Part shown: positions 8,128-64,000 of the stretch, in pieces | Layout: every line of letters begins with the position of its first letter | How positions within the stretch are numbered: position 1 is the stretch's first letter | NCBI GenBank assembly: GCA_964357615.1 | Contig: CAYHMC010000007.1 | Location: 4,896-68,895 of the forward strand | DNA from: an uncultured Candidatus Saccharibacteria bacterium | Lineage (GTDB): Bacteria; Patescibacteriota; Minisyncoccia; UBA6257; JACOXY01 | Reading direction: 5' to 3' | Length of the DNA stretch: 64,000 nt | Made by a program: the position numbers and the translations under genes | The notes under the pieces: generated by a model | The model's input: only the letters and a program-made list of their open reading frames with translations | What the model was told of the DNA's origin: nothing | Database searches by the model: none

Positions 8128-8130
8128 AAT

Positions 8131-8583: not shown

Positions 8584-9373
8584 AATATTATATTTTATAA
8601 AATATTTAATTTATTTATAAAATACTTTGTTACTTAAAAGTATAACACATTGGGGAATTATTCTATACTTTTTATTGTGAATATCTTTGTTAGAAAAAAC
8701 ATTAAATGATTGGGGCTGGGAATTCTATGAATAAAATATTAAATATAAATATCGCGCTTATGGCATACAAAAAAACTAATGTGCCTGTGGATAACTTGTT
8801 GATTTTGTATTGTATATCGATAAACATTGGTTCTTTTACCCCATAATAAAAACCAAATAAGTATATAGTTTTGTCTCGGTTATGACTTTTTTAAGCAAAA
8901 CAATAGATAAGTGCTAAGCTAATGCGAGAACTAGAGAACAAGCTTAATGGGAATTAAATAGAACATTGAAATTAAAATAAATAAATTAAAATAAATATTT
9001 TTAGTTAGTATCATTTGAAGTATAAAAATTATAAAAAATAAAGCCAAGTAAATTGTTTAAATTAAAAAAGTGTATTCAAAGCACATTCTCGCTCTAAAAA
9101 GCAAAATTTTAACCGAGATGCCCAGATTAAATATCGCAATTAAATTAAAGCTTAACTATTGAATTAATACGCCCGACAAATGTCTTAAACAAATAATTAT
9201 CGGAACAAAATATATTCAAAAGTAATAAACAAGTTCTTAAGGATTTTGAATTTTACCAAAAAAATAAATTGGGAATTGGGACTTTGCCTACTAAATAAAT
9301 ATCTGACTCAATTAGCTATGCATAATAAAATTCAAAAAAAATATATAATTTTCAATTTTGAAAATTAACATTT

Positions 9374-10413
9374 TGTTTATCAATAAACAATTTAGAAAAA
9401 ATATTCTATATAAAAATCTCGTAAATCTCCATAAAGTGTTTACCGATAAACATTTCTTTTTAAAAAATACTTAACAACGAACAACAACGCCGAAGCGTAG
9501 GCGCAAAAAATTATTAAAAACATCTTAATATTTTTGTAGATCAAACTAATTTAATATCCTAAATTTTAATCGAAGAACATTTTATTCAACTTAATAAAAG
9601 GTTTAACGATAAACAAAAAAGATTGGGGAGTCGACTTTGCAATATAAAAATATTCATCAACAAATGTTTGGCGATAAACAATTTTAGAAATATGAACAAA
9701 TAACTTTTTTGTGATTGACTGCCAATAACAAATTATAAAAATAGAACTTAAAAAATCATTTAAGCGATTGTTTAGAGTGATTAAGAAATTTATTTTTAAT
9801 CATGCAAATCTTAAAATAATAACTGCAATATTTTTTAATGAATGTTTATCGATAAACAATCAATTCTATTTCGTAAAATGTTTACCGATAAACATTTTAT
9901 TTTATTTAGCAGAATGTTTAACGACAAACAATTTTATTTTTTGAGAAAAATGTTTATCGTTAAACAAAATATTGACTGTTAAATTGAGAGGTTTAAATTT
10001 TTATATAAATTGTTTACTAATAAATATTTTATATAAGTGGAAATTAAATATTGATTAAATGATTATTGTTCTATAAAAAATATTTTTAATTACTGCTCTC
10101 CAGTTATATTAAAATAATTAGGCAATTAAAATAATTAGGCAATCAGGCAATTGCCTAATTTTACTATCGGCAACTAGTAATTTGTCGAAAATGTTTAGCG
10201 ATAAACATTTTTAAAATTCTATATCTAATATTAATTTCCAAAAACTTAATAAAATGTTTATCGACAAACATTTTATTTTATTTAGCAGAATGTTTAACGA
10301 CAAACAAATATATATTTAATTGAAAATAAAAAAAATTAATGTGAATGTTTATCGGTAAACATTTTTAATAATTTTGAATGAATTATTTATTTACGAGTGT
10401 TTGACGATAAACA
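9374..10413. repeat. Array of about 13 copies of a 16-bp perfect or near-perfect palindrome, TGTTTAnCGAnAAACA, often extended to a 20-22 bp palindrome AAATGTTTA.CGA.AAACATTT. A further degenerate copy lies near 10764.
   Basis: Hand-located copies begin at roughly 9374, 9427, 9600, 9665, 9843 (perfect TGTTTATCGATAAACA), 9879, 9915, 9951, 10192, 10255, 10291, 10346 and 10398. Spacing is irregular (33-240 bp). All lie in a gene-free AT-rich region. Confidence 0.85.
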
Positions 10414-11228: not shown

Positions 11229-12308
11229 GTGACTGACAGCAAAGCATCAAAAAAAACCAAGCAACCTTGGTACAATGAGATTGGGATAATGATAGGACTA
11301 ATTGTTTTCGTCCTTTCTAGCTATTATTTTGGCATTGGTCCGGTTCCTGCACTTCTTGCAGTAATCGCAGCCATTTTGCCATCAGCTGTAATTATTGTAC
11401 CGCCACTTCATTATGCAGTGCATGATATTTTGGGAAAAAGAGTTAAAAGGGTTACCTTCGAAGGCCCTAAGCTTGTTCTTCCTTTTATGGAAAGCATTAC
11501 TCTTATTGAGAGGGAACTTAAGCGAATACCCTTCATCGCAATCTTTACTAGCGAAGACGAGCAAGAAATTCAAATCAAGGGCGAGCTACAATATCGTGCC
11601 GACCCTGAAGTAACCAATCGCGAAGGTTATAATGTTCACGCTGAAATTTCAGACGAAATTTTATCGCACGGCATCAATGAAGCCATCGAATCGAAAGTAG
11701 GCGCACTTGGTGGCCTTAAAGAACTTCTGGAATTTATTAAAAATAGAAATGCGATAGAAGATTTCTTAAATTGCTCTTTTCGATTAAGTAAGCCACCACA
11801 CCTAAACCACGATAGCAATAACTGCGGAATTGCAGACTGCAAATTGCCGGTGTGTGTTGATGCCTGTGACATTCCTGATTATTACAACAAGCATCATCGT
11901 GAAGTTAAGGCGCTCTTAGACAACGATAGCAAAAATACTAAAGACAGATCCAACATCGAAACTCGTTACGGTATCGATGTCATAAGTCTTCCACTTGGCA
12001 CAATCAGTTTTTCGGAAAAAACAAAAGAATCGATGGAAAAAAAGAAACAAGTGGAATTGAGAAGAGATGCTTTTGAAAGCACAGTCGCGATGATTAAAAA
12101 AGTTAGAGAACTTGGAGAAGATGTAACTTTCCAAGAGGCAGCTAATGCGGCTCATTGCGCGCTAGAACCAGAAATTGCTAAGAGCAAAAGAATTGTTTCT
12201 GTGGAAGGAGGACTTGGGATGCTGGGTGCCCTACTCACGAACATGGTCGGCATTACCGGCGACGAAAATCAGAATAAAAAAACTCAGCAAAAAACGGGTT
12301 CTAAATAA
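11229..12308 (+). CDS. SPFH/Band-7 (stomatin/prohibitin-like) domain membrane protein
   Basis: 359 aa with a GTG start. An N-terminal TM region is followed by GKRVKRVTFEGPKLVLPFMESITLIERELKRIPF...IQIKGELQYRADPEV, which resembles the SPFH core. The C-terminal half is charged and coiled-coil-like. Confidence 0.55.
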   Translation: MTDSKASKKTKQPWYNEIGIMIGLIVFVLSSYYFGIGPVPALLAVIAAILPSAVIIVPPLHYAVHDILGKRVKRVTFEGPKLVLPFMESITLIERELKRIPFIAIFTSEDEQEIQIKGELQYRADPEVTNREGYNVHAEISDEILSHGINEAIESKVGALGGLKELLEFIKNRNAIEDFLNCSFRLSKPPHLNHDSNNCGIADCKLPVCVDACDIPDYYNKHHREVKALLDNDSKNTKDRSNIETRYGIDVISLPLGTISFSEKTKESMEKKKQVELRRDAFESTVAMIKKVRELGEDVTFQEAANAAHCALEPEIAKSKRIVSVEGGLGMLGALLTNMVGITGDENQNKKTQQKTGSK

Positions 12309-12886: not shown

Positions 12887-13234
12887 TTAACCAGCGCTAA
12901 TACCAAGAAAATCACGGACCAAGAAAGTAACCGAGGCGGCAAGGAGAGCTACGCCGATTGCTACTGCTGCATAAATGACTGCATTTGTAGCTTCAGAAAC
13001 TTTGCTAGCATCTCCACCAGAGGTAAGATATTTAAATGCTGCAATAAGCAAAAAGATTACTGCAACAATAAGAAATATGCTGAATAACCAACTTACCACA
13101 TTTTGCAAAAGACCTAATACATATTCAATATTAAAACCAGGAATTGGAGCTGGGGCAACGAGAGCTGCTCCGGCTATCATTGGTAGCAACAAACTAGCTA
13201 CTGCGATTACTCCAGAAATTTTTTGTAATTTCAT
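12887..13234 (-). CDS. VirB2/TrbC-like T4SS pilin paralog 1
   Basis: 115 aa. Long signal peptide MKLQKISGVIAVASLLLPMIAGAA, then two hydrophobic helices separated by a short polar loop (FKYLTSGGDASKVSEA). The small C-terminal tail ends ...GISAG. It is about 90 percent identical to the 14140..14487 product. Confidence 0.55.
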   Translation of the reverse strand: MKLQKISGVIAVASLLLPMIAGAALVAPAPIPGFNIEYVLGLLQNVVSWLFSIFLIVAVIFLLIAAFKYLTSGGDASKVSEATNAVIYAAVAIGVALLAASVTFLVRDFLGISAG

Positions 13235-13483
13235 AAATTTATAATTATTAACAATAATAAAATTTACGACCTTTAATGAATAAATTATTTAAGCCAACTT
13301 AAAATATAGATAAGTTGCCATATAAGTATTATATACTATATTACCTAAGATTTAATTAATACTGTGGATAAAAATTAAATAGAATAATTTTACAAATAAA
13401 AAACGCCGACCAGAAAATCAGCGCTTTTTATTTGTAATAAGTATTTCTTAGTTACTAACTTACCTAGCAATGAGCAATATATT

Positions 13484-13831
13484 TTACCCTGCAGATATGC
13501 CCAAGAAACTCTCCACCAAACTACGAACGCCACTAGCAAGTAGCGCTACACCAATTGCTACAACCGCAAATATTACTGACCTATTTGCTTCGGAAACCCT
13601 AGAGGCATCTCCACCAGAGGTAAGATATTTAAATGCTGATAAAAGAAGCATTACCACAGCAAAAATCATAAAAATAGCAAAGAGCCAGTTAACTGCTGTA
13701 TCTAAAATGCCCAAAAAAGTTCCAACATTCAAAGTAACACTTGGTGGTGGTGGTAAAGGAGCAGCACTTGCAATCATCGGCAAAAGCATGCTTCCTAAGA
13801 AAAATATTTTTGAAATTTTATTTAACTTCAT
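13484..13831 (-). CDS. VirB2/TrbC-like T4SS pilin paralog 2
   Basis: 115 aa with the same architecture. MKLNKISKIFFLGSMLLPMIASAA signal peptide, AFKYLTSGGDASRVSEANRSVIFAVVAIGVALLA, ends GISAG. Confidence 0.55.
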   Translation of the reverse strand: MKLNKISKIFFLGSMLLPMIASAAPLPPPPSVTLNVGTFLGILDTAVNWLFAIFMIFAVVMLLLSAFKYLTSGGDASRVSEANRSVIFAVVAIGVALLASGVRSLVESFLGISAG

Positions 13832-14139
13832 AAAAAATTTATCAAAACTACGACCTTTTCATAATTATGTTTTAACGATGAAGACTAAGTACCCGATTAA
13901 ATAGTTTAACAAAAAAATATTTAATCGAAAATAATTAATCACATTGTCATATATTAATTCTAAACCCTCAATTCCTGAATTGCAAATAAGTCAATAATGA
14001 TCTTCTATTCATAATTATATTTTATATATTTAACAAAAAATATATTTCCCTAACTAGGAATTAAACACAAAAGCGCTCTGGAACTAAACCAAAGCGCTTT
14101 TTATTATATTACATGGCTAGCTATACAATGTAACTCTAA

Positions 14140-14487
14140 TTAACCAGCGCTAATACCAAGAAAATCACGAACCAAATATTGAACTGAAGCGGCAAGGAGA
14201 GCTACGCCAATTGCAACTGCTGCATATATAACAGATTTGCTTGCTTCTCCTACCTTTGCTGAATCTCCACCAGAGGTAAGATATTTAAATGCTGCAAGAA
14301 GCAAAAAGATTACTGCAACAATAAGAAATATGCTGAATAACCAGCTTACTACATTCTGCAAAAGACCTAATACATATTCAATATTAAAACCAGGAATTGG
14401 AGCTGGGGCAACAACTGCTGCTCCGGCTATCATTGGTAGCAACAAACTAGCTACTGCGACTACTCCAGAAATTTTTTGTAATTTCAT
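14140..14487 (-). CDS. VirB2/TrbC-like T4SS pilin paralog 3
   Basis: 115 aa, near-identical to paralog 1. Confidence 0.55.
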   Translation of the reverse strand: MKLQKISGVVAVASLLLPMIAGAAVVAPAPIPGFNIEYVLGLLQNVVSWLFSIFLIVAVIFLLLAAFKYLTSGGDSAKVGEASKSVIYAAVAIGVALLAASVQYLVRDFLGISAG

Positions 14488-14705
14488 AAATTATTTTAAT
14501 TATTTGCCGACCTTTTAAAGCCTACTCATTAATAGTAACTAAAAAACAGGCATTCGAGCAAATGTGGATAAGTCTTAGTAAGAACAGAGGGCGCTTAATC
14601 ATAAAAATAATATTTAAAAATATCTAAACAAATCCCAACAATAAGTTAAAAAAACAAACTGCTCCTTGCTATGTTTGTGGTGTGAGCTCTATCAAGATAA
14701 GTTTT

Positions 14706-15026
14706 TTAACCAGCAAACCCTCCACCCGTTATAAGCTCTATGATGAGAGTTGTTATGCCTTTTGATAAATATGCGGTTAGCACTGCTAAAACTGCATAGA
14801 CTAGGGCTCGATTGGCAGTTCTAACTTCTTCTGCATTAGCACCTGCGGTAGCATATTTGAATGCAGAGTAAATTACAGCAATTACAGAAAAAATAATTAG
14901 AGAAGTAAAAACGAAGGCAATGATTCTATCGAAAATTAATAAGACTCCCGCGGAATCAATGTTTGAAACTGATCCAGCTGGATCAACGCCACCGCCAACT
15001 GCTGATTGAGCTAAATATTTAAACAT
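14706..15026 (-). CDS. VirB2/TrbC-like pilin paralog 4 (divergent)
   Basis: 106 aa with two hydrophobic helices and the loop FKYATAGANAEEVRTAN. Gly-rich C-terminus ITGGGFAG. Confidence 0.5.
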   Translation of the reverse strand: MFKYLAQSAVGGGVDPAGSVSNIDSAGVLLIFDRIIAFVFTSLIIFSVIAVIYSAFKYATAGANAEEVRTANRALVYAVLAVLTAYLSKGITTLIIELITGGGFAG

Positions 15027-15035
15027 AATTATATT

Positions 15036-15425
15036 TTAACCAGCCGCAGCACCACCGCTAATTATTTCCCTTACCAAAGTTATTATTCCTTTAGAAACAA
15101 GCACTAATGCAAATCCAATAATTGCATACATTATTGATTTGCTTCCTCTCCTAAACTGCTCGGCATTGCCACCAGCTGTTAACATTTGAAAAGATCCGAT
15201 TAAAATCATAATAACGGCAATGGGGATAGATATGGTTACCAAAAAACCAATTGCAATATTAATAATATCAACCAAGTTTTTGTCGCCTACAGGATTGGGA
15301 ACAGGAATTACTCCACCAGGCACAATGTCGCCAGCCTGCGCGTATATAAAATTTATATTTATAAATCCAAAAAGCACAACGAAGCTAAGTATTTTTAAAC
15401 TATTCATTACTAATTTAGTATTCAT
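15036..15425 (-). CDS. VirB2/TrbC-like pilin paralog 5 (divergent)
   Basis: 129 aa. Signal/TM segment, then SFQMLTAGGNAEQFRRGSKSIMYAIIGFALVLV. C-terminus ISGGAAAG. Confidence 0.5.
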   Translation of the reverse strand: MNTKLVMNSLKILSFVVLFGFININFIYAQAGDIVPGGVIPVPNPVGDKNLVDIINIAIGFLVTISIPIAVIMILIGSFQMLTAGGNAEQFRRGSKSIMYAIIGFALVLVSKGIITLVREIISGGAAAG

Positions 15426-15465
15426 AAATAAAAGTGATTTAATATTATTCTTATATATTTTGATT

Positions 15466-15813
15466 CTAACTGCCAGTTATAAGTTCGCGAATAAGAGTAG
15501 TCGAACCTCTAGCAAGCAACACAAGAGCAAAACCAACTATCGAATAAATAACTGTTTTGGTGCCTTTCCTAAACTGCTCAGCATTACCACCGGATGTTAA
15601 CATTTGAAAAGCTCCAATTAAAACCATCAGCACTGTAATAGGAATGGATACGGTTACTAAAAAATCTATGACTCTATTAATTACATCACTTATGGTCCCA
15701 GAAAATGGGGAAGCGGTTATTATTGGCCCTTGTGCGCTTACTATACTTGCATCCAAAAAAACAATTACCACTAAATAATAAACCAGAAAAATCCCAAGCA
15801 TTTTTTTTAGCAT
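15466..15813 (-). CDS. VirB2/TrbC-like pilin paralog 6 (divergent)
   Basis: 115 aa. AFQMLTSGGNAEQFRKGTKTVIYSIVGFALVLLA. C-terminus ELITGS. Confidence 0.5.
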   Translation of the reverse strand: MLKKMLGIFLVYYLVVIVFLDASIVSAQGPIITASPFSGTISDVINRVIDFLVTVSIPITVLMVLIGAFQMLTSGGNAEQFRKGTKTVIYSIVGFALVLLARGSTTLIRELITGS

Positions 15814-15913
15814 ACGAATAAAAATATTAGATGGAAAAAATTAATCAATTAAAAACACTTATACAAATAAGCATATCAATAAAAATATCTAAATCAAAAT
15901 CTATATACTGATT

Positions 15914-16834
15914 CTAAAATCTTATATCCCAGTGATTCGTCTCTCTGGCGTAAATATGTCCGGTGTTAGTATCTCTATACAAGGTAGCACCATCACTTCT
16001 AATTCCAGTCCTAACAAATCCATTAGCACCATTCCCAGTATTTCCTGCAATAAAGTTATCCACACAACTTGATAGTCTAAAATCTAATTTATTTCCACTC
16101 TGATGAGAATTCGGTCCAGTCGCATGTCCACCAGAAACTTCCGTGCCTCCAGTTATAACAATAGGACATCCACTCCTACTCTGAAAACTAACTGCTCCAC
16201 TTTGCGCAGATGTCGACAAGCCATCCAAACAAGTTTGTGGGCAATCATTATTAACTGTAATTTTTCCTCCGCTTGCGCTTAGCAATTGGGCTCTTATTAA
16301 ATTGCTTGCAGCTACATCATTACCTGTTCTACTTGTTGGTTGGGGTGCCCTACTACTATTAGGCAAAACAACTCCACCAGGTCCATTTGATGCTGTTAAT
16401 GTTTCTTCGGGTGGACAATCAATTTGATTCCACGGCTTACCAGTTACATTGTTTACTACAAGTAAATAAAAAACTTGATTAATAATGAGCCAAGAAACGA
16501 GCATTAAAATAACTCCTACTATAGCCCCAGTAATGGCACTTCTGCCTTGTTGGATTTTAGAAGGCATAGCTCCACCCAGCATTATTTGTATAGCACCGTA
16601 AGTAATAACAAGAACTGCCAAGATGGCGCCCACCTCAATCATATAGTTTGTGACTGTTTTGATTGTGTTTAGTCCATCGCAGAGGGTGCAATACTTAGTT
16701 CCGGGAGGAAAACTCAATGTTCCATGACACTGGTCTGGATCTATAATAGAAAAAGCATTTGTTGTAAAAGGTAGGAAGATGAGAAAAAGAAGCGGGAGGA
16801 GGAGAATTTTATTTTTGAGAAATATATTTTGCAT
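15914..16834 (-). CDS. Fusion protein: pilin-like N-terminal module plus C-terminal putative peptidoglycan peptidase domain
   Basis: 306 aa. The N-terminal ~165 aa has a signal peptide and two hydrophobic helices with a GG-containing loop (IQIMLGGAMPSKIQQGRSA), as in the pilin paralogs. It is identical to the N-terminus of the 16930..17985 product. The C-terminal domain contains SHQSGNKLD, an HxxGxxxD spacing reminiscent of M15-type peptidases; this assignment is weak. Confidence 0.45.
   Translation of the reverse strand: MQNIFLKNKILLLPLLFLIFLPFTTNAFSIIDPDQCHGTLSFPPGTKYCTLCDGLNTIKTVTNYMIEVGAILAVLVITYGAIQIMLGGAMPSKIQQGRSAITGAIVGVILMLVSWLIINQVFYLLVVNNVTGKPWNQIDCPPEETLTASNGPGGVVLPNSSRAPQPTSRTGNDVAASNLIRAQLLSASGGKITVNNDCPQTCLDGLSTSAQSGAVSFQSRSGCPIVITGGTEVSGGHATGPNSHQSGNKLDFRLSSCVDNFIAGNTGNGANGFVRTGIRSDGATLYRDTNTGHIYARETNHWDIRF
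16345..16810. repeat. Approx. 470 bp direct repeat, copy 1, identical to about 17495-17960. Encodes the shared pilin-like N-terminal module.
   Basis: The sequences run identically through ...ttcttcgggtggacaatcaatttgattccacggcttaccagttacattgtttactacaag.... The encoded amino acids are identical from KILLLPLLFLIF to GGVVLP. Boundaries are estimated by eye. Confidence 0.75.
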
Positions 16835-16929
16835 GAATAATTCTCTTCAATTCTAACACAAAAGAGCTCGGAGAAATATCACGCGAAAATACTTATTAAA
16901 GAAAAATTCTAAATATATAAAATCAAAAC

Positions 16930-17985
16930 CTAAAAACATTTTCCAAAATTGCAGGCTTTGCCTTTTATAAAACAAGCATTATATCTTCCTTCTCCTGGCC
17001 TTATTGGACATCCCCATTTTGGAATTGCTGGCCATCCATCTGACACCTTACAATCAACGCTTGAGCCACTTTGTCTTATGCCAGCATTATAAATTGCGTA
17101 AGTTAATTCTTCGACAGTAGCGGCGTTTCCGTAGCGAGATTTTAGCGATTTTGCTGAGGAATATGCATCTGCCAAAACTTTGGTTCCTTGCTGAATATTT
17201 GTATCAGGATTTAATGAACAAGCACCGATTGGTTGCATTAAACCACAGCTTAATCCATCTACAGATCCAGCATTAGGATTACATCTAGACTCCATAGCAA
17301 TGATTGCCTTGATTAGAGATTCTGGAACATTGTATATGTCAGAATATTTAGCTATAGATGTTTGCCACGGTGAAGTATCGCATGTCGGACAAGACCCAAT
17401 ACCAGCGCATATTTGGCCACCACCAGAAAGCTGAGCTTTTGCAGCATTAACATCAGCACACGAATCTCCTCCGCCAGGAGGGGGACTACCGCCAGGCAAA
17501 ACAACTCCACCAGGTCCATTTGATGCTGTTAATGTTTCTTCGGGTGGACAATCAATTTGATTCCACGGCTTACCAGTTACATTGTTTACTACAAGTAAAT
17601 AAAAAACTTGATTAATAATGAGCCAAGAAACGAGCATTAAAATAACTCCTACTATAGCCCCAGTAATGGCACTTCTGCCTTGTTGGATTTTAGAAGGCAT
17701 AGCTCCACCCAGCATTATTTGTATAGCACCGTAAGTAATAACAAGAACTGCCAAGATGGCGCCCACCTCAATCATATAGTTTGTGACTGTTTTGATTGTG
17801 TTTAGTCCATCGCAGAGGGTGCAATACTTAGTTCCGGGAGGAAAACTCAATGTTCCATGACACTGGTCTGGATCTATAATAGAAAAAGCATTTGTTGTAA
17901 AAGGTAGGAAGATGAGAAAAAGAAGCGGGAGGAGGAGAATTTTATTTTTGCCTTTCATATATAAAATAAGTTTAACACAAAGCAA
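16930..17985 (-). CDS. Fusion protein: pilin-like N-terminal module plus C-terminal lytic transglycosylase (SLT, VirB1-like) domain
   Basis: 351 aa. The N-terminal module is identical to that of the 15914..16834 protein. The C-terminus contains AIIAMESRCNPNAGSVDGLSCGLMQP, the SLT-domain catalytic Glu-Ser and GLMQ motif. Confidence 0.6.
   Translation of the reverse strand: MLCVKLILYMKGKNKILLLPLLFLIFLPFTTNAFSIIDPDQCHGTLSFPPGTKYCTLCDGLNTIKTVTNYMIEVGAILAVLVITYGAIQIMLGGAMPSKIQQGRSAITGAIVGVILMLVSWLIINQVFYLLVVNNVTGKPWNQIDCPPEETLTASNGPGGVVLPGGSPPPGGGDSCADVNAAKAQLSGGGQICAGIGSCPTCDTSPWQTSIAKYSDIYNVPESLIKAIIAMESRCNPNAGSVDGLSCGLMQPIGACSLNPDTNIQQGTKVLADAYSSAKSLKSRYGNAATVEELTYAIYNAGIRQSGSSVDCKVSDGWPAIPKWGCPIRPGEGRYNACFIKGKACNFGKCF
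17495..17960. repeat. Approx. 470 bp direct repeat, copy 2, identical to 16345-16810
   Basis: See copy 1. Confidence 0.75.
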
Positions 17986-18056
17986 AAAAATATTTATGAG
18001 CTGAAAAAATAATTTATCTAAATAAAATAAATGAACTAAATAAAGGATGGGCTTAA

Positions 18057-19406
18057 CTATCTCATGAGCAATGAAACTGCGTCCTCAGCCCTATCAATAG
18101 CAACTTCAGCAGATAATTCGCCCCTTATAACGGCACCAATCATTTCAGAAATTATTCCCTCAATTGAACCTGTGTCTTTTTGCCACCACGATTTTGCTGT
18201 TTGTGATTGACGAACAAAAACTCCAAGCTCTGGGTCATTTTTCTTTCTATCAATTAATGTAAGCAATGCTGGTGGCTTTCCGGTTTCCACTGAATATGCG
18301 TCAGCACTAACTTCGTTGGCCGTAATAGCTGCAATAAAATCCCAAGCCCATTGAGGATTTTCGCTTTGTCTTGATACTGCTAGTCCCCAATAATTTGCAT
18401 AATTTGTTGGTTGCACTGCATCGGCTGGCTGTGGCACCGGCGCAACTCTAAATTTAAGAAAGGCATTCTTAGCTTTTACGATAGGAATTGCATGAGCATA
18501 ATTAAACATAATTGCAGTATTTCCAGACGCAAAACTATCTATTGAATAAGGAAAGCGCTCACTCCATGTATAAAATTGAGAATACGGATTTGCAAACTGT
18601 GTATAAAACTTAAGTCCTTCTAATCCTGGGTTTGTTTTTTCAGTAGACTGAGAAAAAATAGCACTTGTATTTTTACTATTCGTAAATTTTGCTCCTCTCT
18701 GCATCATTATTAAAGAAACTAAATCTGTGGCACGATTGACGCTAAGCGTAGTTCCACCAATCGCAGCAGCTGATAATTTTATATTATTTGTGCCAGTGTC
18801 AATTTCTCTAATTTGCGAAACAACACTTTCAAAATCAGACCAAGTAGTTGGTACAACCGCAATGCTCTTTCGCGCAAATATATCTAAGTTATAAAACATT
18901 GCCAAAGAATCGAGATATAGTGGAAATGCATAAATTGCCGAATCTCTTGTAAAATCGTTCATAACAACCTCTGGAAATAAATCTCTATACTTAACAAATG
19001 GAAATTCAGTAGCCGTTTGCAATCTTTGATCAAGGGGTAAAATCTTACTTTCGTGCTTTGGAAGCCAATTATTTTGAACCATGAAAATATCTGGCCCTCT
19101 TCCTTCCGCCAATGCATTCACAAGGTCATTTTCATAATTTTCAACCTCACTTCGTCCATTGTTTTTTTGGACATAAGGAACATAAGTTATAGTTACATTT
19201 TTATTAGCCTTGCTATATACATCCACGATAGAATCAAATGCTCTTTTGTCATCAATTACACCCCAAACAACTAATTTCATTGTTGGTACACGAACAATAA
19301 TTTTCAACCCTATGATAAATAGAAAATATAAAAACAAAAGCGATCCTACTATAGCTATAATTATTTTTAGCTTTTGAAATGTTAATCCAAAGGGTAAATT
19401 ATTCAT
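18057..19406 (-). CDS. Extracellular solute-binding protein, family 1 (sugar/maltodextrin-type ABC transporter SBP), N-terminally membrane-anchored
   Basis: 449 aa. The N-terminal TM segment (IIIAIVGSLLFLYFLFIIGL) is followed by LVVWGV...DIFMVQNNWLPKH and an overall SBP_bac_1-like pattern. No permease or ATPase genes are adjacent. Confidence 0.5.
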   Translation of the reverse strand: MNNLPFGLTFQKLKIIIAIVGSLLFLYFLFIIGLKIIVRVPTMKLVVWGVIDDKRAFDSIVDVYSKANKNVTITYVPYVQKNNGRSEVENYENDLVNALAEGRGPDIFMVQNNWLPKHESKILPLDQRLQTATEFPFVKYRDLFPEVVMNDFTRDSAIYAFPLYLDSLAMFYNLDIFARKSIAVVPTTWSDFESVVSQIREIDTGTNNIKLSAAAIGGTTLSVNRATDLVSLIMMQRGAKFTNSKNTSAIFSQSTEKTNPGLEGLKFYTQFANPYSQFYTWSERFPYSIDSFASGNTAIMFNYAHAIPIVKAKNAFLKFRVAPVPQPADAVQPTNYANYWGLAVSRQSENPQWAWDFIAAITANEVSADAYSVETGKPPALLTLIDRKKNDPELGVFVRQSQTAKSWWQKDTGSIEGIISEMIGAVIRGELSAEVAIDRAEDAVSLLMR

Positions 19407-23475: not shown

Positions 23476-24555
23476 ATGAAAACTTCATTCGCAGATTTTG
23501 TAAAAAATGACGCCACGGTGTTAAAGCTTCCTCGCGAAGGCGAAGTAGTAGATGGCATACTAATTGAAAAGAAACCACGCAGAGCTTATTTTAATTTAGG
23601 CACTCTTGGAACTGGAATAGTTTATGGTAGAGAATATTTAAATGCAAAAGAAATTATTAAGGGATTAGCTGTGGGAGATAAAATGAGCGCTAAAATATCT
23701 GCCGTTCAGAACGAAGATGGCTATGTAGAACTTTCACTTGGCGCAGCAAGCGAAGAAAAACAATGGGGTGGGGTTCAAGACCTTAAAGAATCTGGTGAAA
23801 TTATCACCCTAAAAATAACTGGGGCAAATAGCGGAGGTTTAATAGCTGATTTAAGCAACTTAAAAGCATTTTTACCTGTATCACAATTATCTAACGAACA
23901 TTATCCTAGAATTTCTGGTAGCGAGAATCAAAAAGAGGCCATATTAAAAGAGCTTAAGAAATTTACAGGACAGGAAATGCGAGTAAAAGTAATAGATGTA
24001 AATCCCAGAACTGAAAAACTTATTATTTCCGAGCGTGAAATTACAGATGAAAATGTCAAAGAATTACTTAAAAAATATACGGTAGGCGATATAGTCGATG
24101 GCATAGTATCGGGCGTTGCAGATTTTGGAGCCTTTGTTAAATTTGTTGACAATCCAGCAATTGAAGGACTTATTCACATCTCTGAACTTGATCATAAACT
24201 AATAGAAGGACCGAAAGATGTGGTTAAGGTTGACGACCCAGTAAGAGTAAAAATTATTGATATAAAAGATGGCAGGGTATTCTTGTCTCTCAAAGCCCTA
24301 AAAGCCGACCCATGGGCCACCATTGCAGAAAGATACAAAGAAGGAGCAGAAGTTTCTGGAAAAGTTAAAAAGTTTAACCCTTATGGTGCGTTTATAGACT
24401 TGGGCGACGGCGAAATTCAAGGCCTAATCCATGTTTCTGAATTTGGGGGAACAGAAGAAATGAAAAAAGTGTTAGAGCTTGGAAATACGTATAACTTCAC
24501 AATAACAACACTAAAACCAGAAGAGAAAAGATTGCTTCTTAAGATAAAAAAATAA
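23476..24555 (+). CDS. rpsA: 30S ribosomal protein S1 (short four-S1-domain form)
   Basis: 359 aa with four S1-like repeats. GEVVDGILIEK..., GEIITLKITGANSGGLIADL, VGDIVDGIVSGVADFGAFVKF...GLIHISEL, AEVSGKVKKFNPYGAFIDLGDGEIQGLIHVSEF. Confidence 0.8.
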   Translation: MKTSFADFVKNDATVLKLPREGEVVDGILIEKKPRRAYFNLGTLGTGIVYGREYLNAKEIIKGLAVGDKMSAKISAVQNEDGYVELSLGAASEEKQWGGVQDLKESGEIITLKITGANSGGLIADLSNLKAFLPVSQLSNEHYPRISGSENQKEAILKELKKFTGQEMRVKVIDVNPRTEKLIISEREITDENVKELLKKYTVGDIVDGIVSGVADFGAFVKFVDNPAIEGLIHISELDHKLIEGPKDVVKVDDPVRVKIIDIKDGRVFLSLKALKADPWATIAERYKEGAEVSGKVKKFNPYGAFIDLGDGEIQGLIHVSEFGGTEEMKKVLELGNTYNFTITTLKPEEKRLLLKIKK

Positions 24556-24584
24556 TTCACTTTGTATTATTGAATTAAAAAAAA

Positions 24585-24612
24585 TCACGACTACCATGTC
24601 GTGTTTTTTTAT
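24585..24612 (+). terminator. Rho-independent terminator for rpsA
   Basis: Hairpin CACGAC-taccat-GTCGTG followed by TTTTTTTATTT. Confidence 0.6.
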
Positions 24613-24623
24613 TTAAATAAAAA

Positions 24624-24660
24624 AGGGAGGGTCGCACAGCGTACTGCTGTGTGCCCTCCC
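24624..24660 (-). terminator. Rho-independent terminator, minus strand, for the GC-rich gene 24682..25095
   Basis: Imperfect GC-rich hairpin GGGAGGGTCGCACAGC...GCTGTGTGCCCTCCC, followed on the minus strand by a T-run (complement of the aaaaaa stretch at about 24610-24622). Confidence 0.5.
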
Positions 24661-24681
24661 TGTGAATCAGAAACCCACTGA

Positions 24682-25095
24682 CTAGGCGGAGAAGAGTGCT
24701 TCGACTTCGTTCGCCTCGGTCACGCGACCCTGCGACCCCACGGTCGAAGTCTCGAGATCGGCGATCGCAAGACGAAGTCGCGCAATCTCGACTTCGGTCT
24801 CACGCTTCTCCTCGGCGTTCTGGGCTTGGAGCGAATCCTCGTTGACTCGGAGCTTGGCTGCGTCGGAGGCCACGGTGTTCTCGAGTCCGAGGACACCAAC
24901 CACGACACCCATGACAGCGCCAACTTGCTCTGGAGTGCTCGCGAACTTGGAAGTCGCGATTGCCTTCGCCAGGTCGAACACCATCGGCTTGGGCAACTTG
25001 ATCGACTCCTTGCCGGTTTTGATGCCGACCGCGAAAGTAAGTAGCGTCATCCCGATGAAAATCACTGTCCCGATGAAAATCGTGGGCATATCCAT
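24682..25095 (-). CDS. GC-rich foreign-looking gene: small N-terminally membrane-anchored protein with C-terminal coiled coil. The track ORF extends to 25140; the likely start is the ATG at 25095, preceded by an AAGGAGAG Shine-Dalgarno.
   Basis: Product MDMPTIFIGTVIFIGMTLLTFAVGIK...EIARLRLAIADLETSTVGSQ. Codon third positions are overwhelmingly G/C. GC is far above the surrounding genome. Confidence 0.55.
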   Translation of the reverse strand: MDMPTIFIGTVIFIGMTLLTFAVGIKTGKESIKLPKPMVFDLAKAIATSKFASTPEQVGAVMGVVVGVLGLENTVASDAAKLRVNEDSLQAQNAEEKRETEVEIARLRLAIADLETSTVGSQGRVTEANEVEALFSA

Positions 25096-25422: not shown

Positions 25423-25451
25423 TTGACAAAAAGCTATTTTTTTGCTATAAT
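25423..25451 (+). promoter_or_regulatory. Consensus sigma70 promoter: TTGACA, 17-nt spacer, TATAAT
   Basis: ggTTGACAaaaagctatttttttgcTATAATgg lies about 110 nt upstream of the ATG at 25561, which has an AAGGAGA Shine-Dalgarno. Confidence 0.65.
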
Positions 25452-60888: not shown

Positions 60889-61572
60889 ATGGCACAGTTT
60901 CAAGTTCCACAATTTATTGAGATTGAACAAAAAATTATTGGCGGAGCATTTACTATGCGCCAATTCTTAATAATGGCCTTGGGTGCAGGTTTGGTTTTTT
61001 TACTTTTTTTGGTATTAAACTTTATTGTTTGGGTGTTTTTTGCAGTTATTATTGGAGTTGGAATTTTTGCCGTGGCCTTTTTGAAAGTAAGTGGTAGATC
61101 ATTTGGCCTTTTGCTTAAAGCTGCTTTTTTTTACTATTGGAATCCATCTTTTTATCTCTGGAAATCAGAAGATGAATACGGGGTTAAAATACCAGAAACC
61201 AAACAAATCAAAACTACCAACCCCGAATCCACAGAAGAAAATAGCTCTCAAACAGTAACCACAAGAAGATTTGGTGTTTTTTCAAAACCAGAAAATAGAC
61301 TACAAATCAACGACAAAACAAAAGAATCGCCGAAAAATTCTAAACCAAGCTATGATTCAAAGTCTCTTAATCACAAAGAAACAAGAGAAAAACTAAAAAT
61401 TGGAGATCAAATTCAAAGCTTGTGGGAAAAAATCTCCACAACAAAAGACTTAATTCCAAAGCGAGAAAATAGAATGAATCCATTTCAAAAAGAAAGAGCA
61501 GAGGCGGGTTACGAAGCTATGAGACGATCAACCGGAGAAGTTGAAATGGCAAAACGGGTTGATTTTACGTAG
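60889..61572 (+). CDS. PrgI/VirB3-like small membrane protein of a T4SS
   Basis: 227 aa. MAQFQVPQFIEIEQKIIGGAFTMRQFLIMALGAGLVFLLF... resembles the PrgI-family N-terminus (M..V..DI...KI.GLT.RQ). There are two TM helices. It sits immediately upstream of VirB4, the canonical VirB3-VirB4 order. Confidence 0.55.
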   Translation: MAQFQVPQFIEIEQKIIGGAFTMRQFLIMALGAGLVFLLFLVLNFIVWVFFAVIIGVGIFAVAFLKVSGRSFGLLLKAAFFYYWNPSFYLWKSEDEYGVKIPETKQIKTTNPESTEENSSQTVTTRRFGVFSKPENRLQINDKTKESPKNSKPSYDSKSLNHKETREKLKIGDQIQSLWEKISTTKDLIPKRENRMNPFQKERAEAGYEAMRRSTGEVEMAKRVDFT

Positions 61573-61646
61573 TCGCTAATCATTAAAACATTTTATTAGG
61601 GGAGGGTATTTAATCGAAAAAACCATTTATCTGGTATACTACTACT

Positions 61647-62282
61647 ATGGCAACAGAAGAATCTCTACCATCACAAGATTTTATCGCAATCAGTGAAATT
61701 AAAAACGATGTAATATATTTAAAAAACGGAGGAATTCGAAAAGTACTTCTTGTCTCTGGAATTAATACAGAACTAAAATCTGAAGACGAACAAAATACAG
61801 TCTACTTTCTATTTCAAAATTTTTTAAATAGCGTAGACTTTCCGCTTCAGTTTGCAGTTCATTCGCGCAAATTAAATGTAAATGGATATCTTGCGTATCT
61901 AGAAACTCGTCGAGTCGCAGAAACAAACGAACTACTAAAAAGTGGCATAGAGGAATACATTGAGTTCGTTAAGTCATTCGTTCAAGAAAATGCAATTATG
62001 ACAAAAAATTTTTTTGTAGTTGTTTCTTATAATCCACTTATAGCTTCCTCAAAAACAAGCTTGGCAAGCTCAATACCGATTATTGGTAAAAAAATGGGTG
62101 GGGATGACAAACAAAAAAATGAGACTGAAATGATTGAACAACTCACACAAAGGACAGAACAAGTTACTTCGGGACTGCATGGAATTGGACTTCGAGCTAT
62201 AGCTTTAAATAGTAGCGAACTAACTGAATTATTTTTTAATCTCTACAATCCAGAAACCATCGAGAAAAAACTTTCTCAATAA
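61647..62282 (+). CDS. VirB4/TrbE/CagE family N-terminal domain, encoded as a separate ORF
   Basis: 211 aa. DFIAISEIKNDVIYLKNGGIRKVLLVSGINTELKSEDEQNTVYFLFQNFLNSVDFPLQFAVHS matches the CagE/TrbE/VirB N-domain pattern (report, then LNSLDFPIQI). It terminates at a TAA, 39 nt before the ATPase ORF. Confidence 0.6.
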   Translation: MATEESLPSQDFIAISEIKNDVIYLKNGGIRKVLLVSGINTELKSEDEQNTVYFLFQNFLNSVDFPLQFAVHSRKLNVNGYLAYLETRRVAETNELLKSGIEEYIEFVKSFVQENAIMTKNFFVVVSYNPLIASSKTSLASSIPIIGKKMGGDDKQKNETEMIEQLTQRTEQVTSGLHGIGLRAIALNSSELTELFFNLYNPETIEKKLSQ

Positions 62283-62321
62283 TTTTAAAAATTGGTTATT
62301 TAAATATTTAACAAAAACGAT

Positions 62322-64000
62322 ATGGAAAAAGATGCTAAAAACTTAATCGCTCCGGCCGCCGTAAAAGTTAATCCCAATAATATGAAAATTGGGGACAAGT
62401 ACATTAAAACCCTTTTTGTGTTTGCATATCCGCGCACCCTAGTTTCGGGTTGGTTAAACCCAATAATTAATGTTCCTGAACTTTTGGATATTTCAATTTT
62501 TATGCACCCAGTCGATACTTCAGTAGCCTTAAAAAATCTAATGAAAAAGGCGGCCAGGTTAGAGGCGGAATTAATTGAACATCAAGAAAAGGGGCTAGTT
62601 CGAGACCCACAACTTGAAACCGCATATAAAGATGTTGATATGTTACGAGATGCGCTTCAACAAGCAAGAGAAAAACTTTTCAATGTTGGGCTGTATGTAA
62701 CAATTTACGCTGACTCTGTTGAGGCTTTAAATAAATTAGAGGCAAAAATTACTGCAATGTTCGAGAATCAACTTGTGTATGTTAAAAATGCTATTTTTCA
62801 AGAAAACGAGGGATTTACTGCCACATTGCCATTGGGCAACGACGAACTTTACATTAATAAACCTATGAACTCTGGGCCACTTTCGAGTTTTTTCCCTTTT
62901 ATTTCAACCGATCTTACTAGCGACAAAGGAATAATGTACGGCTTAAACCGACACAATAGCACCTTAGTTATATTTGATAGATTTTCTTTAGAAAACGCCA
63001 ACACCGCAATCTTTGCAAAATCAGGAGCGGGCAAATCTTATGCAGCTAAATTAGAAATACTTAGAATGCTAATGACGGGTACGGATGTTTTAGTTATAGA
63101 CCCAGAAAATGAATATGAAATGTTAGCAAATGCAGTAGGTGGAACAATTTTTAAAATCGGGCTCCACTCAAAAGACCACATTAATCCACTAGATATTCCA
63201 CCAATACCAGAAGACGAAGTTCCTGGCGAGGTTTTAAAGTCACATATATTAAATTTAACTGGCCTTCTTAAGTTAATGTTAGGCAAAATCACCTCAGAAG
63301 AAGACGCTATTTTAGACCAGGCTCTTACCGAAGTTTACGCGGCTCGTGGAATTACTGCCGACCGTGACTTTAGAAATCTAGAACCACCTAGGCTTCAAGA
63401 TTTTCGAGTTGTTCTTGAAAACATGTCTGGTGGACGCGACCTAGCCCAAAGATTATATAAATTCACGGATGGTAGTTTTGCTGGTTTTGTAAATCAACCA
63501 ACCAGCGTTGATGTTAAAAACCGCTTTATTGTTTTTTCAATCAGAGACCTCGAAGAAGAGCTGAGACCGGTTGCTATGTATATAATTCTAAACTTTGTGT
63601 GGAACCTTGTTAGGTCCGAACTAAAAAAGAGAGTTATTGTTTTGGATGAGGCGTGGTGGATGATGCAACACGAAGAAGGAGCTAGATTTTTATTCGGCTT
63701 AGTTAAGCGTGCGCGTAAATATTATCTAGGCGTGACAACAATAACTCAGGATGTTGAGGATTTTATTAGCTCGCCTTACGGCAGACCCGTAATAACAAAT
63801 TCGTCGTTACAATTATTATTACAACAGGCACCAGCCGCAATTGACGCCGTTGCAAAAACTTTTTCACTTACTACCATTGAAAAAAATCTTTTAGTTGAGG
63901 CGGAACCAGGGCATGGAATATTTTTTGCAGGACTTCGCCATGTTGCTATTCAGATTATTCCCTCTTATTTTGAAAATAAAATTATAACTACAAATCCAGA
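62322..64000 (+). CDS. VirB4-like T4SS ATPase domain, partial (continues beyond window end)
   Basis: My translation from ATG 62322. Walker A FAKSGAGKSY, Walker B VIVLDEAWWMM, GVTTITQDVEDF and NSSLQLLLQQ, the VirB4 sensor and C-motifs. The frame is open to position 64000. It is not in the ORF track, presumably because no stop is reached. Confidence 0.75.
   Translation, partial: MEKDAKNLIAPAAVKVNPNNMKIGDKYIKTLFVFAYPRTLVSGWLNPIINVPELLDISIFMHPVDTSVALKNLMKKAARLEAELIEHQEKGLVRDPQLETAYKDVDMLRDALQQAREKLFNVGLYVTIYADSVEALNKLEAKITAMFENQLVYVKNAIFQENEGFTATLPLGNDELYINKPMNSGPLSSFFPFISTDLTSDKGIMYGLNRHNSTLVIFDRFSLENANTAIFAKSGAGKSYAAKLEILRMLMTGTDVLVIDPENEYEMLANAVGGTIFKIGLHSKDHINPLDIPPIPEDEVPGEVLKSHILNLTGLLKLMLGKITSEEDAILDQALTEVYAARGITADRDFRNLEPPRLQDFRVVLENMSGGRDLAQRLYKFTDGSFAGFVNQPTSVDVKNRFIVFSIRDLEEELRPVAMYIILNFVWNLVRSELKKRVIVLDEAWWMMQHEEGARFLFGLVKRARKYYLGVTTITQDVEDFISSPYGRPVITNSSLQLLLQQAPAAIDAVAKTFSLTTIEKNLLVEAEPGHGIFFAGLRHVAIQIIPSYFENKIITTNP

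Follow-up and report, generated by a model that had tools for sequence, protein, structure and literature searches.

Predicted cell wall hydrolases fused to a VirB2-like pilin module at the head of a Patescibacterial pilin array

By analysing a stretch of 64,000 nucleotides of DNA (the window) from a Patescibacterium, an ultra-small bacterium from groundwater which belongs to the candidate phyla radiation (CPR), we found two adjacent genes, here called gene A and gene B, which join one and the same pilin-like membrane module to two different predicted cell wall hydrolases. We suggest with moderate confidence that both gene products are membrane-tethered, VirB1-like wall cutters which serve a pilus of the type IV secretion system (T4SS) type, and that the DNA repeat shared by the two genes is a gene-conversion tract. 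The two predicted peptidoglycan hydrolases would be located outside the cytoplasmic membrane, each tied by a flexible linker of about 20–30 residues to the same two-helix membrane hairpin of the VirB2/T4SS_pilin type. The protein of gene B, an SLT lytic transglycosylase by its predicted activity, would cut the glycan strands, and the protein of gene A, a predicted LAS-type zinc peptidase similar to VanX/VanY/MepA, would cut the peptide part. Jointly they would provide both activities which in Gram-positive conjugation systems are found in single multidomain VirB1-type hydrolases. With the N-out/C-out topology that is predicted for the anchor, the enzymes would face the wall. Through the anchor they may become part of the pilin pool or be placed where the Patescibacterial T4SS-type pilus is assembled. 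There they could make way for the pilus in the wall of their own cell and perhaps also open that of the host at the contact zone.

Domain organization of the two proteins

Genes A and B adjoin each other on the minus strand (Table 1) and code for proteins of 306 and 342 aa. For gene B we take the ATG at position 17958 as the likelier start, the open reading frame list having a longer frame (16930–17985) with a TTG start; an exact-match look-up of the gene B protein in three start variants returned no record. As assembled, the longest exact DNA match between both genes is 457 nt long and encodes 152 identical residues, namely K7–P158 in gene A and K4–P155 in gene B. A previous sequence-only reading of this DNA had described a shared module of identical DNA with a size of roughly 470 bp and about 165 aa; the identity is real, and both sizes were slightly too high. 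The same reading had stated that the C-terminal parts differ completely. Outside the repeat only 19–32 of 60 nt are identical, which is the level of unrelated sequences.

Table 1. Positions of the gene pair, its domains and neighbouring genes in the window
Feature	Position	Strand	Description
Gene A	15914..16834	-	Signal peptide, VirB2-like hairpin, disordered linker and LAS-type zinc-peptidase-like domain
Gene B	16930..17958	-	Signal peptide, VirB2-like (T4SS_pilin) hairpin, Gly/Pro linker, SLT lytic transglycosylase and Cys-rich tail
Repeat copy A	16361..16817	-	457 nt, codons 7–158 of gene A; read as gene-conversion tract
Repeat copy B	17494..17950	-	457 nt, codons 4–155 of gene B
Gene A TM hairpin	16454..16684	-	Residues 51–127, homologous to the small pilins (Pfam, AlphaFold, hhalign)
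Gene A LAS-like domain	15917..16324	-	Residues 171–306, Hedgehog/DD-peptidase fold (conservation, AlphaFold model)
Gene B SLT domain	17071..17355	-	Pfam match PF01464; AMES, GLMQ, IYNAG
Six small VirB2-like pilin genes	12887..15813	-	15466–15813, 15036–15425, 14706–15026, 14140–14487, 13484–13831, 12887–13234
Membrane-anchored solute-binding protein gene (SBP_bac_1)	18057..19406	-	Directly upstream; same place in all related loci
T4SS core genes	60889..63998	+	PrgI/VirB3-like 60889–61572; 211-aa ORF 61647–62282; VirB4-like ATPase from 62322, incomplete at window end

The shared module starts with a predicted signal peptide, which is probably cleaved after TNA27, and continues with two long helices (residues 51–86 and 91–127, pLDDT >90 in the AlphaFold model) connected by the positively charged loop GGAMPSK. 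Hydropathy segments and the AlphaFold model both give the arrangement of a pilin, a signal peptide and two hydrophobic helices with a short loop, just as had been read from the sequence. Both proteins exceed the Pfam threshold of the family T4SS_pilin (PF18895, 26.6 bits), gene A with 30.8 bits and gene B with 30.9 bits, and this family is matched by 79 of 83 homologues, TrbC (PF04956) also by 16. When the profile of the module was compared with the adjacent small pilins by hhalign, both were aligned over 69 columns with a probability of 98%, an E-value of 2.7e-13 and an identity of about 22%. The kinship to the neighbouring pilins, with which the sequence-only reading was to stand or fall, is therefore established. 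In searches of the PDB with the N-module profile and with the small-pilin profile, no solved conjugative pilin was matched by sequence.

By their full length both proteins lie outside the size range of about 90–140 aa of the small single-domain pilins. The module also occurs on its own as a pilin-like protein of 136–144 aa at the same position of the locus (L004/L009, P0008). Four conserved cysteines (C36, C49, C52, and C140 in gene A numbering) flank the hairpin and are confined to the predicted outside parts of the protein. Because of these cysteines and the low identity the module forms a class apart from the small pilins. Judged by its sequence, the anchor is a paralogue of the adjacent pilins which has become specialised and carries cysteines.

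The C-terminal part of gene B had been called an SLT lytic transglycosylase, and this assignment stands: Pfam PF01464 is matched with 39.5 bits (threshold 21.3, E 4.8e-10), and the motifs AMES (221–224), GLMQ (239–242), and IYNAG (289–293) are all present, AMES comprising the putative catalytic residue Glu223. We take E-S, GLMQ, and AYNxG to be the signature motifs of the SLT/GH23 lytic transglycosylases. Sequence and profile searches with the SLT region against the PDB gave no match.

In the C-terminal part of gene A an HxxGxxxD motif had been noticed. This motif (H244…D251) is real, and all of 83 homologues possess the residues H244, G247, K249, D251, H301, and D303, with E298, R279, H237, and E232 conserved in at least 90% of these sequences. 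H244-x6-D251 together with H301, the putative zinc ligands, follows the pattern H-x(3–6)-D plus distal H of the LAS peptidases, and to judge from this conservation the residues are the LAS H-x6-D…H triad plus the VanX-like ExxH (E298…H301). The AlphaFold model of the domain (pLDDT 92, pTM 0.87) displays the Hedgehog/DD-peptidase fold of the LAS metallopeptidases. Members of these zinc peptidases are the MEROPS M15-type enzymes VanX/VanY, MepA, and phage L-Ala-D-Glu endopeptidases, and the N-domain of hedgehog has the same fold. At E<=1 the domain was recognised by no model of Pfam or NCBIfam, the M15/VanY/MepA models included; it found no match in the PDB by sequence or profile, and Foldseek searches of the PDB with the full-length and C-domain models returned nothing significant. 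A tblastn search against phages gave no match either.

Conservation of the gene family and its locus

When the N-module, the C-terminus of gene A and an alignment of the N-module served as queries in word-indexed protein searches, 0, 0, and 2 matches were obtained, respectively; informative was the exhaustive HMMER search, which detected 564 cluster representatives at E<=1e-10. The hits to the family number 3701 in all. Among the best 150 of the 564 representatives, 120 combine the pilin-like module with the LAS-like peptidase domain and 20 possess the LAS-like domain without pilin module. Going by these matches, module plus peptidase is not a rare architecture; it predominates in a family that comprises hundreds of 50%-identity clusters. 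The pilin-like fold and the cysteines are kept across hundreds of clusters.

The location of the genes is conserved as well. In relatives from the CPR (Patescibacteria) the genes are arranged in the order gyrA, solute-binding protein (SBP), pilin-hydrolase gene or genes, pilin array (L002, L003, L004/L009, L006, L008, L012), and pilin neighbours of the fusion genes are also found in L013 and L014. Adjacency to a pilin array is seen in 9 of the 10 related loci examined (L002, L003, L004/L009, L006, L012, L013, L014, and the window), and the fusion genes always head the array; in L015 a family member stands alone without pilin neighbours. In the window, the array of six pilin genes follows directly downstream of the gene pair and five of its members exceed the T4SS_pilin threshold, which bears out the earlier description of a locus beside a pilin gene array. 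The recognisable T4SS core (VirB4, PrgI) is encoded in the same window about 45 kb from genes A and B. The gene pair is surrounded by core genes (NusA, GyrA, S1, FtsH, PNPase), for which reason we rejected the idea that it is cargo of a mobile element. An Rfam scan of the window detected tRNAs only, and a promoter scan was not above background. Terminator-like hairpins are present after the last three pilin genes only.

It had been proposed to look for additional fused C-terminal variants in other genomes of the lineage, and such variants do exist. The N-module is found with an SLT domain, with LAS domains of type 1 or type 2, with a Cys-rich HxH domain or without any C-terminal domain, and N-modules bearing different C-termini are 42–100% identical, the similarity being independent of the type of the C-terminus. 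A natural fusion in L012 comprises a membrane-anchored SBP of 450 aa, the pilin module and the peptidase and has a third transmembrane segment. This fusion of SBP, hairpin and peptidase is consistent with the proposed topology.

Origin of the identical repeat

Within a genome the N-modules of the paralogous proteins are very similar, with amino acid identities of 100% in the window, 89% in L002, and 84% in L011. Between the window and L002 the identity is 60% for the N-module, 56% for the SLT domain, 58% for the LAS domain, and 57% for the SBP. As the N-modules are 84–100% identical within a genome and only about 60% between genomes, we attribute the repeat to gene conversion and not to the assembly. 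The 457-nt identity indicates a recent gene-conversion tract, and on comparison of the sequences the N-modules appear to evolve in concert whereas the enzymatic domains diverge independently. The locus offers a clean case of concerted evolution that is restricted to one domain, the anchor being homogenised and the enzymes being free to diverge.

Nevertheless, an exact repeat of this length is difficult for short-read assemblers, and two strain variants could have been joined in series or near-identical copies could have been polished to one consensus. The sequence P0004, a copy of gene B, begins inside the repeat as if the assembly broke there, and the ENA contig that matches the locus has a 2x coverage only. 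However, the sequence upstream of copy A differs from the sequence upstream of copy B, therefore both junctions exist in the data. The ENA contig (Hainich H41, 1766 nt), which may stem from the same reads, corresponds to positions 15539–17271 of the window with 100% identity over 1733 nt and spans the 3′ end of gene B, the intergenic spacer and the whole of gene A with its repeat and C-terminus before it runs into the next pilin. For the Hainich H41 0.1-um sample the assembly is ERZ1292625. In addition, the same tandem layout with non-identical repeats is present in two other assemblies from other samples (L002 and L011), and diverged repeats cannot have been collapsed. Taken together, the distinct junctions and the recurrence of the layout make it unlikely that the arrangement arose by assembly, and we regard the artefact, which the sequence-only reading had named as its own weak point, as extremely improbable.

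Possible roles of the fusion proteins

The homology to pilins is compatible with a hairpin that stays in the membrane, as we prefer, and likewise with a hairpin that enters the filament. In the latter case, which the sequence-only reading had suggested, the fusion proteins would be true minor pilins, their hairpin being pulled out of the membrane and built into the tip or the shaft of the T4SS-type pilus, and the enzymes would be displayed on the filament and cut the wall of a host or partner cell. We consider this possible but not probable. The homology itself, the invariable first place of the fusion genes in the pilin array and the stand-alone module at the same position are in favour of such a display on the pilus, and the concerted evolution of the N-modules would suit two proteins which both have to fit into one filament lattice. 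In the solved conjugative pili both termini of the pilin point to the exterior of the filament, therefore a C-terminal domain would be exposed. It also agrees with this possibility that Patescibacteria live attached to host cells and that no role is known for their T4SS (PMC11665869). On the other hand, the module of L012 is located between the membrane-anchored SBP and the peptidase, so this protein could hardly leave the membrane. Moreover, a globular domain of 140–190 aa on each subunit would be hard to pack, save in a rare or tip subunit, and the cysteines and the low identity set the module apart from the small pilins. A more specific picture is that the fusion proteins are minor or tip subunits and that a filament tip bearing both a glycan and a peptide cutter first bores through the wall of its own cell and afterwards breaches that of the host. 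This picture is doubtful; if it were true, a route for the nutrient extraction of the epibionts would be opened, and gene conversion would keep both subunits lattice-compatible.

Conversely, the proteins could be housekeeping autolysins for growth and division with an anchor that is merely derived from a pilin and has no functional tie to a T4SS or pilus. The chromosomal location beside gyrA and far from virB4, the solitary family member of L015 and the LAS domains lacking the pilin module would fit this explanation, but it is unlikely given that the fusion genes lie beside pilin arrays in nearly all related loci examined and that the pilin-like fold and the cysteines are retained over hundreds of clusters. 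In addition, the anchor evolves in concert, which suggests selection on the anchor itself. The sequence-only reading had seen in the architecture the logic of polymorphic toxins or effectors. In such a system the N-module would act as delivery domain, and the variable C-termini would act as interchangeable toxins, exported by the T4SS into competitors and accompanied by cognate immunity. The architectural part of this proposal stands, as at least four kinds of C-terminus occur on one type of N-module and the similarity of the N-modules does not track them. The other part is not supported: the gene that comes after gene B is gene A, the one after gene A codes for a pilin, and neither place is taken by a small immunity-like gene; there are no orphan hydrolase fragments or C-terminal cassettes in the region of 12.8–18 kb of the window, all assignable C-termini are predicted peptidoglycan hydrolases (the Cys-rich HxH type being outside the assigned set), and the place on the core chromosome beside gyrA is conserved in all genomes seen. 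The orthologous SLT and LAS domains have diverged to the same degree as the other parts of the locus (56–60% identity), and this speaks for vertical descent. A stable two-helix membrane hairpin, to our knowledge, resembles no secretion signal of a T4SS. The polymorphic-toxin reading is thus weak and in our opinion very unlikely, and a classical polymorphic toxin is rejected since an immunity gene is absent.

Comparison with known systems

The explanation that we prefer, membrane-tethered wall cutters of a T4SS-type pilus, relates genes A and B to the VirB1-type hydrolases of Gram-positive T4SS, for example, TraG of pIP501, PrgK of pCF10, TcpG, and CwlT, which are T4SS-associated wall cutters. 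These four proteins combine SLT- or lysozyme-like cleavage of the glycan with cleavage of the peptide, and an N-terminal hydrophobic segment fixes them to the membrane. In contrast, the two predicted activities are divided here between two proteins, and a VirB2-like two-helix pilin module takes the place of the single-helix anchor. The putative peptidase is of the LAS type and not of the CHAP, NlpC/P60, or M23 type, and the genes head a pilin array instead of lying beside virB4. The VirB1-type hydrolases of Gram-positive T4SS have been summarised by Quinonero-Coronel et al. (2025, PMC12102498), who also report that most Patescibacterial genomes with VirB2 pilins are without detectable VirB1. 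Our results suggest that the missing VirB1 hydrolases of Patescibacteria may be found in the fusions to a pilin-like module which head the pilin array. In that place they escape VirB1 profiles and the Pfam peptidase models, and Pfam has no entry at all for the peptidase domain.

The T4SS and the pilin arrays are essential in the one Patescibacterium that is genetically tractable, and their function has been called completely unknown (PMC11665869; Wang et al. 2023, PMC10633639). The fusions would provide a physical link between wall degradation and the pilus apparatus, and clearing of the own wall and attack on the wall of the host become separable models. Tandem arrays of 2–11 divergent pilin genes are known from Patescibacteria (PMC10633639, PMC12102498), and the six small genes downstream of gene A constitute a typical array of this kind. 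The modules of genes A and B belong to the same Pfam family (PF18895) as the VirB2-like pilins of these arrays and share with them the signal peptide and the two-helix hairpin (Wang et al. 2023; Quinonero-Coronel et al. 2025). However, the described pilins are small and single-domain, whereas genes A and B add enzymatic domains of 140–190 residues and the four conserved cysteines. Pilin-hydrolase fusions are not mentioned in these two papers, nor in the further papers searched on Patescibacteria or T4SS biology, which describe pilin arrays and VirB1 homologues, in agreement with the earlier remark that such fusions are not a described arrangement. The design is common in the sequence databases, and we found no paper describing it.

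With polymorphic toxins such as CDI, Rhs, and MafB the gene pair shares a conserved N-terminal part, alternative C-terminal enzymes and recombination at the boundary; it differs from them by the lack of an immunity gene and of orphan cassettes, by the narrow range of its C-termini, which are wall hydrolases, and by its core position and vertical descent. In type IV pili, modular minor pilins also consist of a pilin module and a globular functional domain and are encoded together with the major pilins. Their extra domain is C-terminal, and they are located at the tip of the pilus. This likeness is an analogy only, as type IV pilins form an unrelated superfamily, distinct from the VirB2-like pilins, with a different assembly machine. 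The LAS-like domain itself is also encoded on a Streptomyces conjugative plasmid (hhalign E 1e-32), where it forms one protein with two PG_binding_1 domains, next to a GH25 lysozyme.

The gene pair and its shared module

Adjacent genes A and B encode the same pilin-like N-terminal module followed by different enzyme domains. Their common 5′ part, seen already in the sequence-only reading, is a 457-nt repeat encoding 152 identical residues, and its two copies are identical base for base in the assembled sequence according to a direct-repeat search, pairwise alignment and an exact-substring search. The repeat starts a few codons past each start codon and ends within the linker, after ...GPGGVVLP. 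Past the repeat the genes match at 19–32 positions per 60 nt, the level of unrelated DNA, and the sequences upstream of both genes are also unlike each other. Both its alignment to gene A and the residues MKGKNKILLL favour the ATG as the start of gene B. A similar motif, TTTGTGTTA(G/A)A, is located 20–30 nt upstream of the ATG in both genes and resembles an extended −10 element (TGnTAGAAT / TGnTAAACT); the two genes might thus be transcribed from separate promoters.

An assembly artefact, which the earlier reading had considered, is unlikely for this arrangement. The junctions upstream of the repeat copies are distinct, the tandem layout is found elsewhere with diverged repeats, and a separate ENA contig, possibly from the same reads as the window, is 100% identical over 1733 nt. 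The matching stretch begins at the 3′ end of gene B, takes in the spacer and all of gene A with its repeat copy, and extends into the next pilin. We therefore take the arrangement to be real and reject an artefact as its cause.

The proposed relationship of the module to the pilins was borne out. The Pfam family PF18895 (T4SS_pilin) matches genes A and B with 30.8 and 30.9 bits (curated threshold 26.6), and five of the six small downstream genes also score above the threshold. When a module profile from seven close relatives was compared with one built on 14 small pilins of the window and related loci, hhalign gave a probability of 98% and an E-value of 2.7e-13 over 69 columns spanning both helices and the loop. 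In addition, the module HMM matches the adjoining small pilins in every related locus. By these profiles the module is a pilin homologue, but it is set apart from the small pilins by four conserved cysteines (C36, C49, C52, and C140) and by an identity of only ∼22% to them in the hhalign alignment. The AlphaFold model of gene A (83 homologues, mean pLDDT 84) has long helices at residues 51–86 and 91–127 and a disordered linker at 148–165. Given the signal peptide, the positively charged loop and cysteines found only in the outer segments, the topology should be N-out/C-out, with the enzyme domain facing the wall.

The cysteine-bearing segment before helix 1 (PDQCHGTLSF..KYCTLCDG) is weakly SRCR-like in a PDB profile search (PIT54, whole-sequence E-value 1.8e-4, single repeats each insignificant), which is probably chance. 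A pilin-like protein of 106 aa lacks a signal peptide and falls short of the T4SS_pilin cut-off. The counterparts in loci L002, L003, and L006 share its N-terminus KYLAQSAV, and it seems to represent a separate class of pilins with a different kind of leader.

Features in the window and in related loci (L numbers, loci in other assemblies or contigs; SBP, solute-binding protein)
Feature	Sequence	Position	Strand	Remark
Gene A	window	15914–16834	−	306 aa
Gene B	window	ATG at 17958	−	342 aa from ATG; TTG at 17985 in ORF list
Repeat copy A	window	16361–16817	−	457 nt
Repeat copy B	window	17494–17950	−	457 nt
Upstream motifs	window	16835–16870, 17959–17990	−	
Cysteine-bearing segment	window	about 16664–16738		gene A residues 33–57
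Match of ENA contig	window	15539–17271		
SBP gene (SBP_bac_1)	window	18057–19406	−	membrane-anchored
Six small pilin-like genes	window	12887–15813		
Pilin-like protein	window	14706–15026	−	106 aa
Band_7/SPFH gene	window	11229–12308	+	
Band_7/SPFH gene	L013	3098–4267		
Gene in Band_7/SPFH position	L003	11263–12435		390 aa
Fusion protein	L012 (GCA_042568045.1)	1327–3567		SBP, T4SS_pilin and LAS, 746 aa
Shortened SLT gene	L011 (Hainich H43 contig)	64–870		268 aa
gyrA	L003 (Candidatus Liptonbacteria MAG)	2191–6489		1432 aa
LAS-like domain protein	L016 (Streptomyces sp. NBC_00334 plasmid)	176386–177393		
PrgI/VirB3-like and VirB4-like genes	window	60.9–64 kb		
VirB4-like ATPase	window	62322–63998	+	P-loop_TraG, AAA_10
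ORF ahead of VirB4-like gene	window	61647–62282	+	211 aa
Four ORFs	window	55058–60853		
GC low	window	8001–10000		GC 0.25
GC-rich region	window	24001–28000		GC 0.47–0.50
Overlapping long ORFs	window	25528–26478	both	
tRNA-Ile (TAT)	window	31581–31654	+	

The enzyme domains

The C-terminus of gene B was correctly recognized as a lytic transglycosylase domain (SLT, PF01464, E-value 4.8e-10, with the ES, GLMQ, and YNAG motifs). The C-terminal domain of gene A has no match in Pfam or NCBIfam and no PDB match by sequence, and a Pfam scan of 83 aligned members found no C-domain match in any of them; its family is without a Pfam model. The domain is modelled with high confidence (pLDDT 92, pTM 0.87), and VanX, VanYB, LysB4, Ply500, the T5 and RB49 endolysins and LdcB are its lower-ranked matches. 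A Foldseek search with the gene A models found nothing, hence the relationship is distant. Among the 83 homologues H244, G247, K249, D251, H301, and D303 are invariant, and E232, H237, R279, and E298 are kept in at least 90%. H244-x6-D251 and H301 correspond to the LAS zinc triad, and E298-x-x-H301 resembles the ExxH of VanX/VanY. A conjugative Streptomyces plasmid offers independent context: its copy of the domain (hhalign E 1e-32) comes after two PG_binding_1 domains, and a GH25 lysozyme is encoded next to it. This context, the conserved residues and the fold support the earlier guess of a metallopeptidase, and we infer a putative new LAS-like family acting on peptidoglycan. Replicons of Streptomyces, Nonomuraea, and Deinococcus carry the domain as well.

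Distribution and conservation of the locus

With gene A as the query, HMMER was run exhaustively against 1.84 billion cluster representatives and yielded 3701 matches at E ≤ 1e-3, of which 564 reach E ≤ 1e-10, mostly of about 300 aa and aligned end to end. Among the best 150 of the 3701, the pilin-like module is joined to a LAS domain in 120, the LAS domain stands without it in 20, several of actinobacterial look, and the module is alone or has another C-terminus in 10. Thus, the architecture is common.

Gene order in related loci (N, shared module; LAS1, LAS-type zinc-peptidase-like domain as in gene A; LAS2, divergent form with HVEF at its end)
Locus	Genes in order
Window	gyrA, SBP, N+SLT, N+LAS1, six pilins
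L002	gyrA, SBP, N+SLT, N+LAS1, three pilins
L011	N+SLT, N+Cys-rich HxH type
L003, L006	SBP, N+LAS2, pilins
L008	SBP, start of a gene like that of the homologous protein P0005
L004/L009	gyrA, SBP, module alone (136 aa), pilins
L012	gyrA, methyltransferase, SBP+module+LAS1 in one protein, six pilins

The same anchor thus carries differing enzymes across genomes. All C-termini assignable to a type are predicted wall hydrolases, the Cys-rich HxH type being outside this count. Pilin genes also neighbour L013 and L014 and do not neighbour L015.

The SBP gene precedes the pilin-hydrolase gene or genes wherever a related locus includes the upstream gene. The fusion in L012 suggests that the SBP is functionally linked to the pilin-hydrolases, perhaps in the capture of wall fragments. 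Both the window and L013 have, at the far end of the array, a Band_7/SPFH gene that is convergent with a small uncharacterized gene; a gene of L003 is alike in size and position. The Band_7/SPFH gene may be part of the conserved neighbourhood. The shortened gene of L011 ends within the SLT domain and leaves about 325 nt to the following gene; it is a pseudogene or else reflects an error of this 2x-coverage contig. In L003, homing-endonuclease-like sequence breaks up the conserved GyrA blocks and the gene appears to carry intein insertions.

Probable gene conversion of the anchor

Compared with L002, the window has 83% identity in GyrA, 60% in the module, 58% in the LAS part, 57% in the SBP, and 56% in the SLT part. 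Both enzyme genes are orthologous between the two, so the duplication predates the split of the genomes. Despite this the modules are alike within each genome (100% identity in the window, 89% in L002, where they are 88% identical in DNA over about 480 nt, and 84% in L011), which indicates repeated gene conversion restricted to the anchor. The identical segment of the window would then show a very recent conversion tract. Module similarity tracks the genome lineage and not the type of C-terminus, as in L003 (LAS2) and the homologous protein P0003 (LAS1) with 71%.

Possible function

We suggest that genes A and B encode a membrane-tethered pair of wall hydrolases, predicted to be one glycan cutter and one peptide cutter, which the VirB2-like anchor would bring to the pool of pilins or to the site of T4SS assembly, while gene conversion would keep the two anchors alike. 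The pair would then be the VirB1 equivalent of this system. Alternatively, the fusions might be minor or tip pilins displaying the enzymes on the filament. In favour of this, the module is truly homologous to pilins, always stands at the head of the array and exists in a stand-alone form; we nevertheless regard filament display as unlikely. The L012 protein has an extra transmembrane segment and the 450-aa SBP before the hairpin, so that by its domain order the hairpin must operate within the membrane, at least in this protein. Display, if shown, would sharply raise the interest of the finding.

The sequence-only reading also saw the logic of a polymorphic toxin system in the variable C-termini. 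Its pilin-related module, wall-hydrolase C-termini and anchor with varying enzymes stand, but a toxin system does not fit, as no immunity-like gene is present at the pilin-hydrolase loci, the neighbourhood is a stable part of the core genome, and the assignable C-termini are all predicted wall hydrolases. We prefer the tethered pair.

Pilin arrays of 2–11 genes in Patescibacteria and their essentiality are already described (PMC12102498, PMC10633639, PMC12857230), and the supplement of PMC10633639 lists pilins of small size. Most VirB2-bearing genomes are without detectable VirB1, and VirB1 homologues at times carry M23 or LysM domains (PMC12102498). The limited set of Patescibacteria and T4SS literature searched does not mention a VirB2-hydrolase fusion, in line with the earlier claim of novelty, although an earlier description elsewhere is possible. 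Both kinds of component, a VirB2-like pilin module and a VirB1-like hydrolase, are known; the finding is their widespread fusion, with one enzyme domain missing from Pfam and an anchor under clear domain-restricted concerted evolution.

Genomic surroundings

With a GC content of about 37%, the window is AT-rich, and it encodes the core proteins NusA, GyrA, S1, an RNase J-like protein, FtsH, and PNPase. The public assemblies closest to it are CPR/Patescibacteria from groundwater, with a Candidatus Liptonbacteria MAG and contigs of the Hainich aquifer among them. The PrgI/VirB3-like and VirB4-like genes show that the organism has a T4SS core, away from genes A and B. The separate ORF ahead of the VirB4-like ATPase has no Pfam match and may represent the N-terminal domain of VirB4, split off from the rest; four further ORFs without Pfam matches could be more T4SS parts. 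The GC-rich region at 24–28 kb, with long ORFs overlapping on both strands, matches no Rfam family, and a GC low lies at 8–10 kb. The tRNA-Ile gene adjoins a tRNA-Val gene (TAC).
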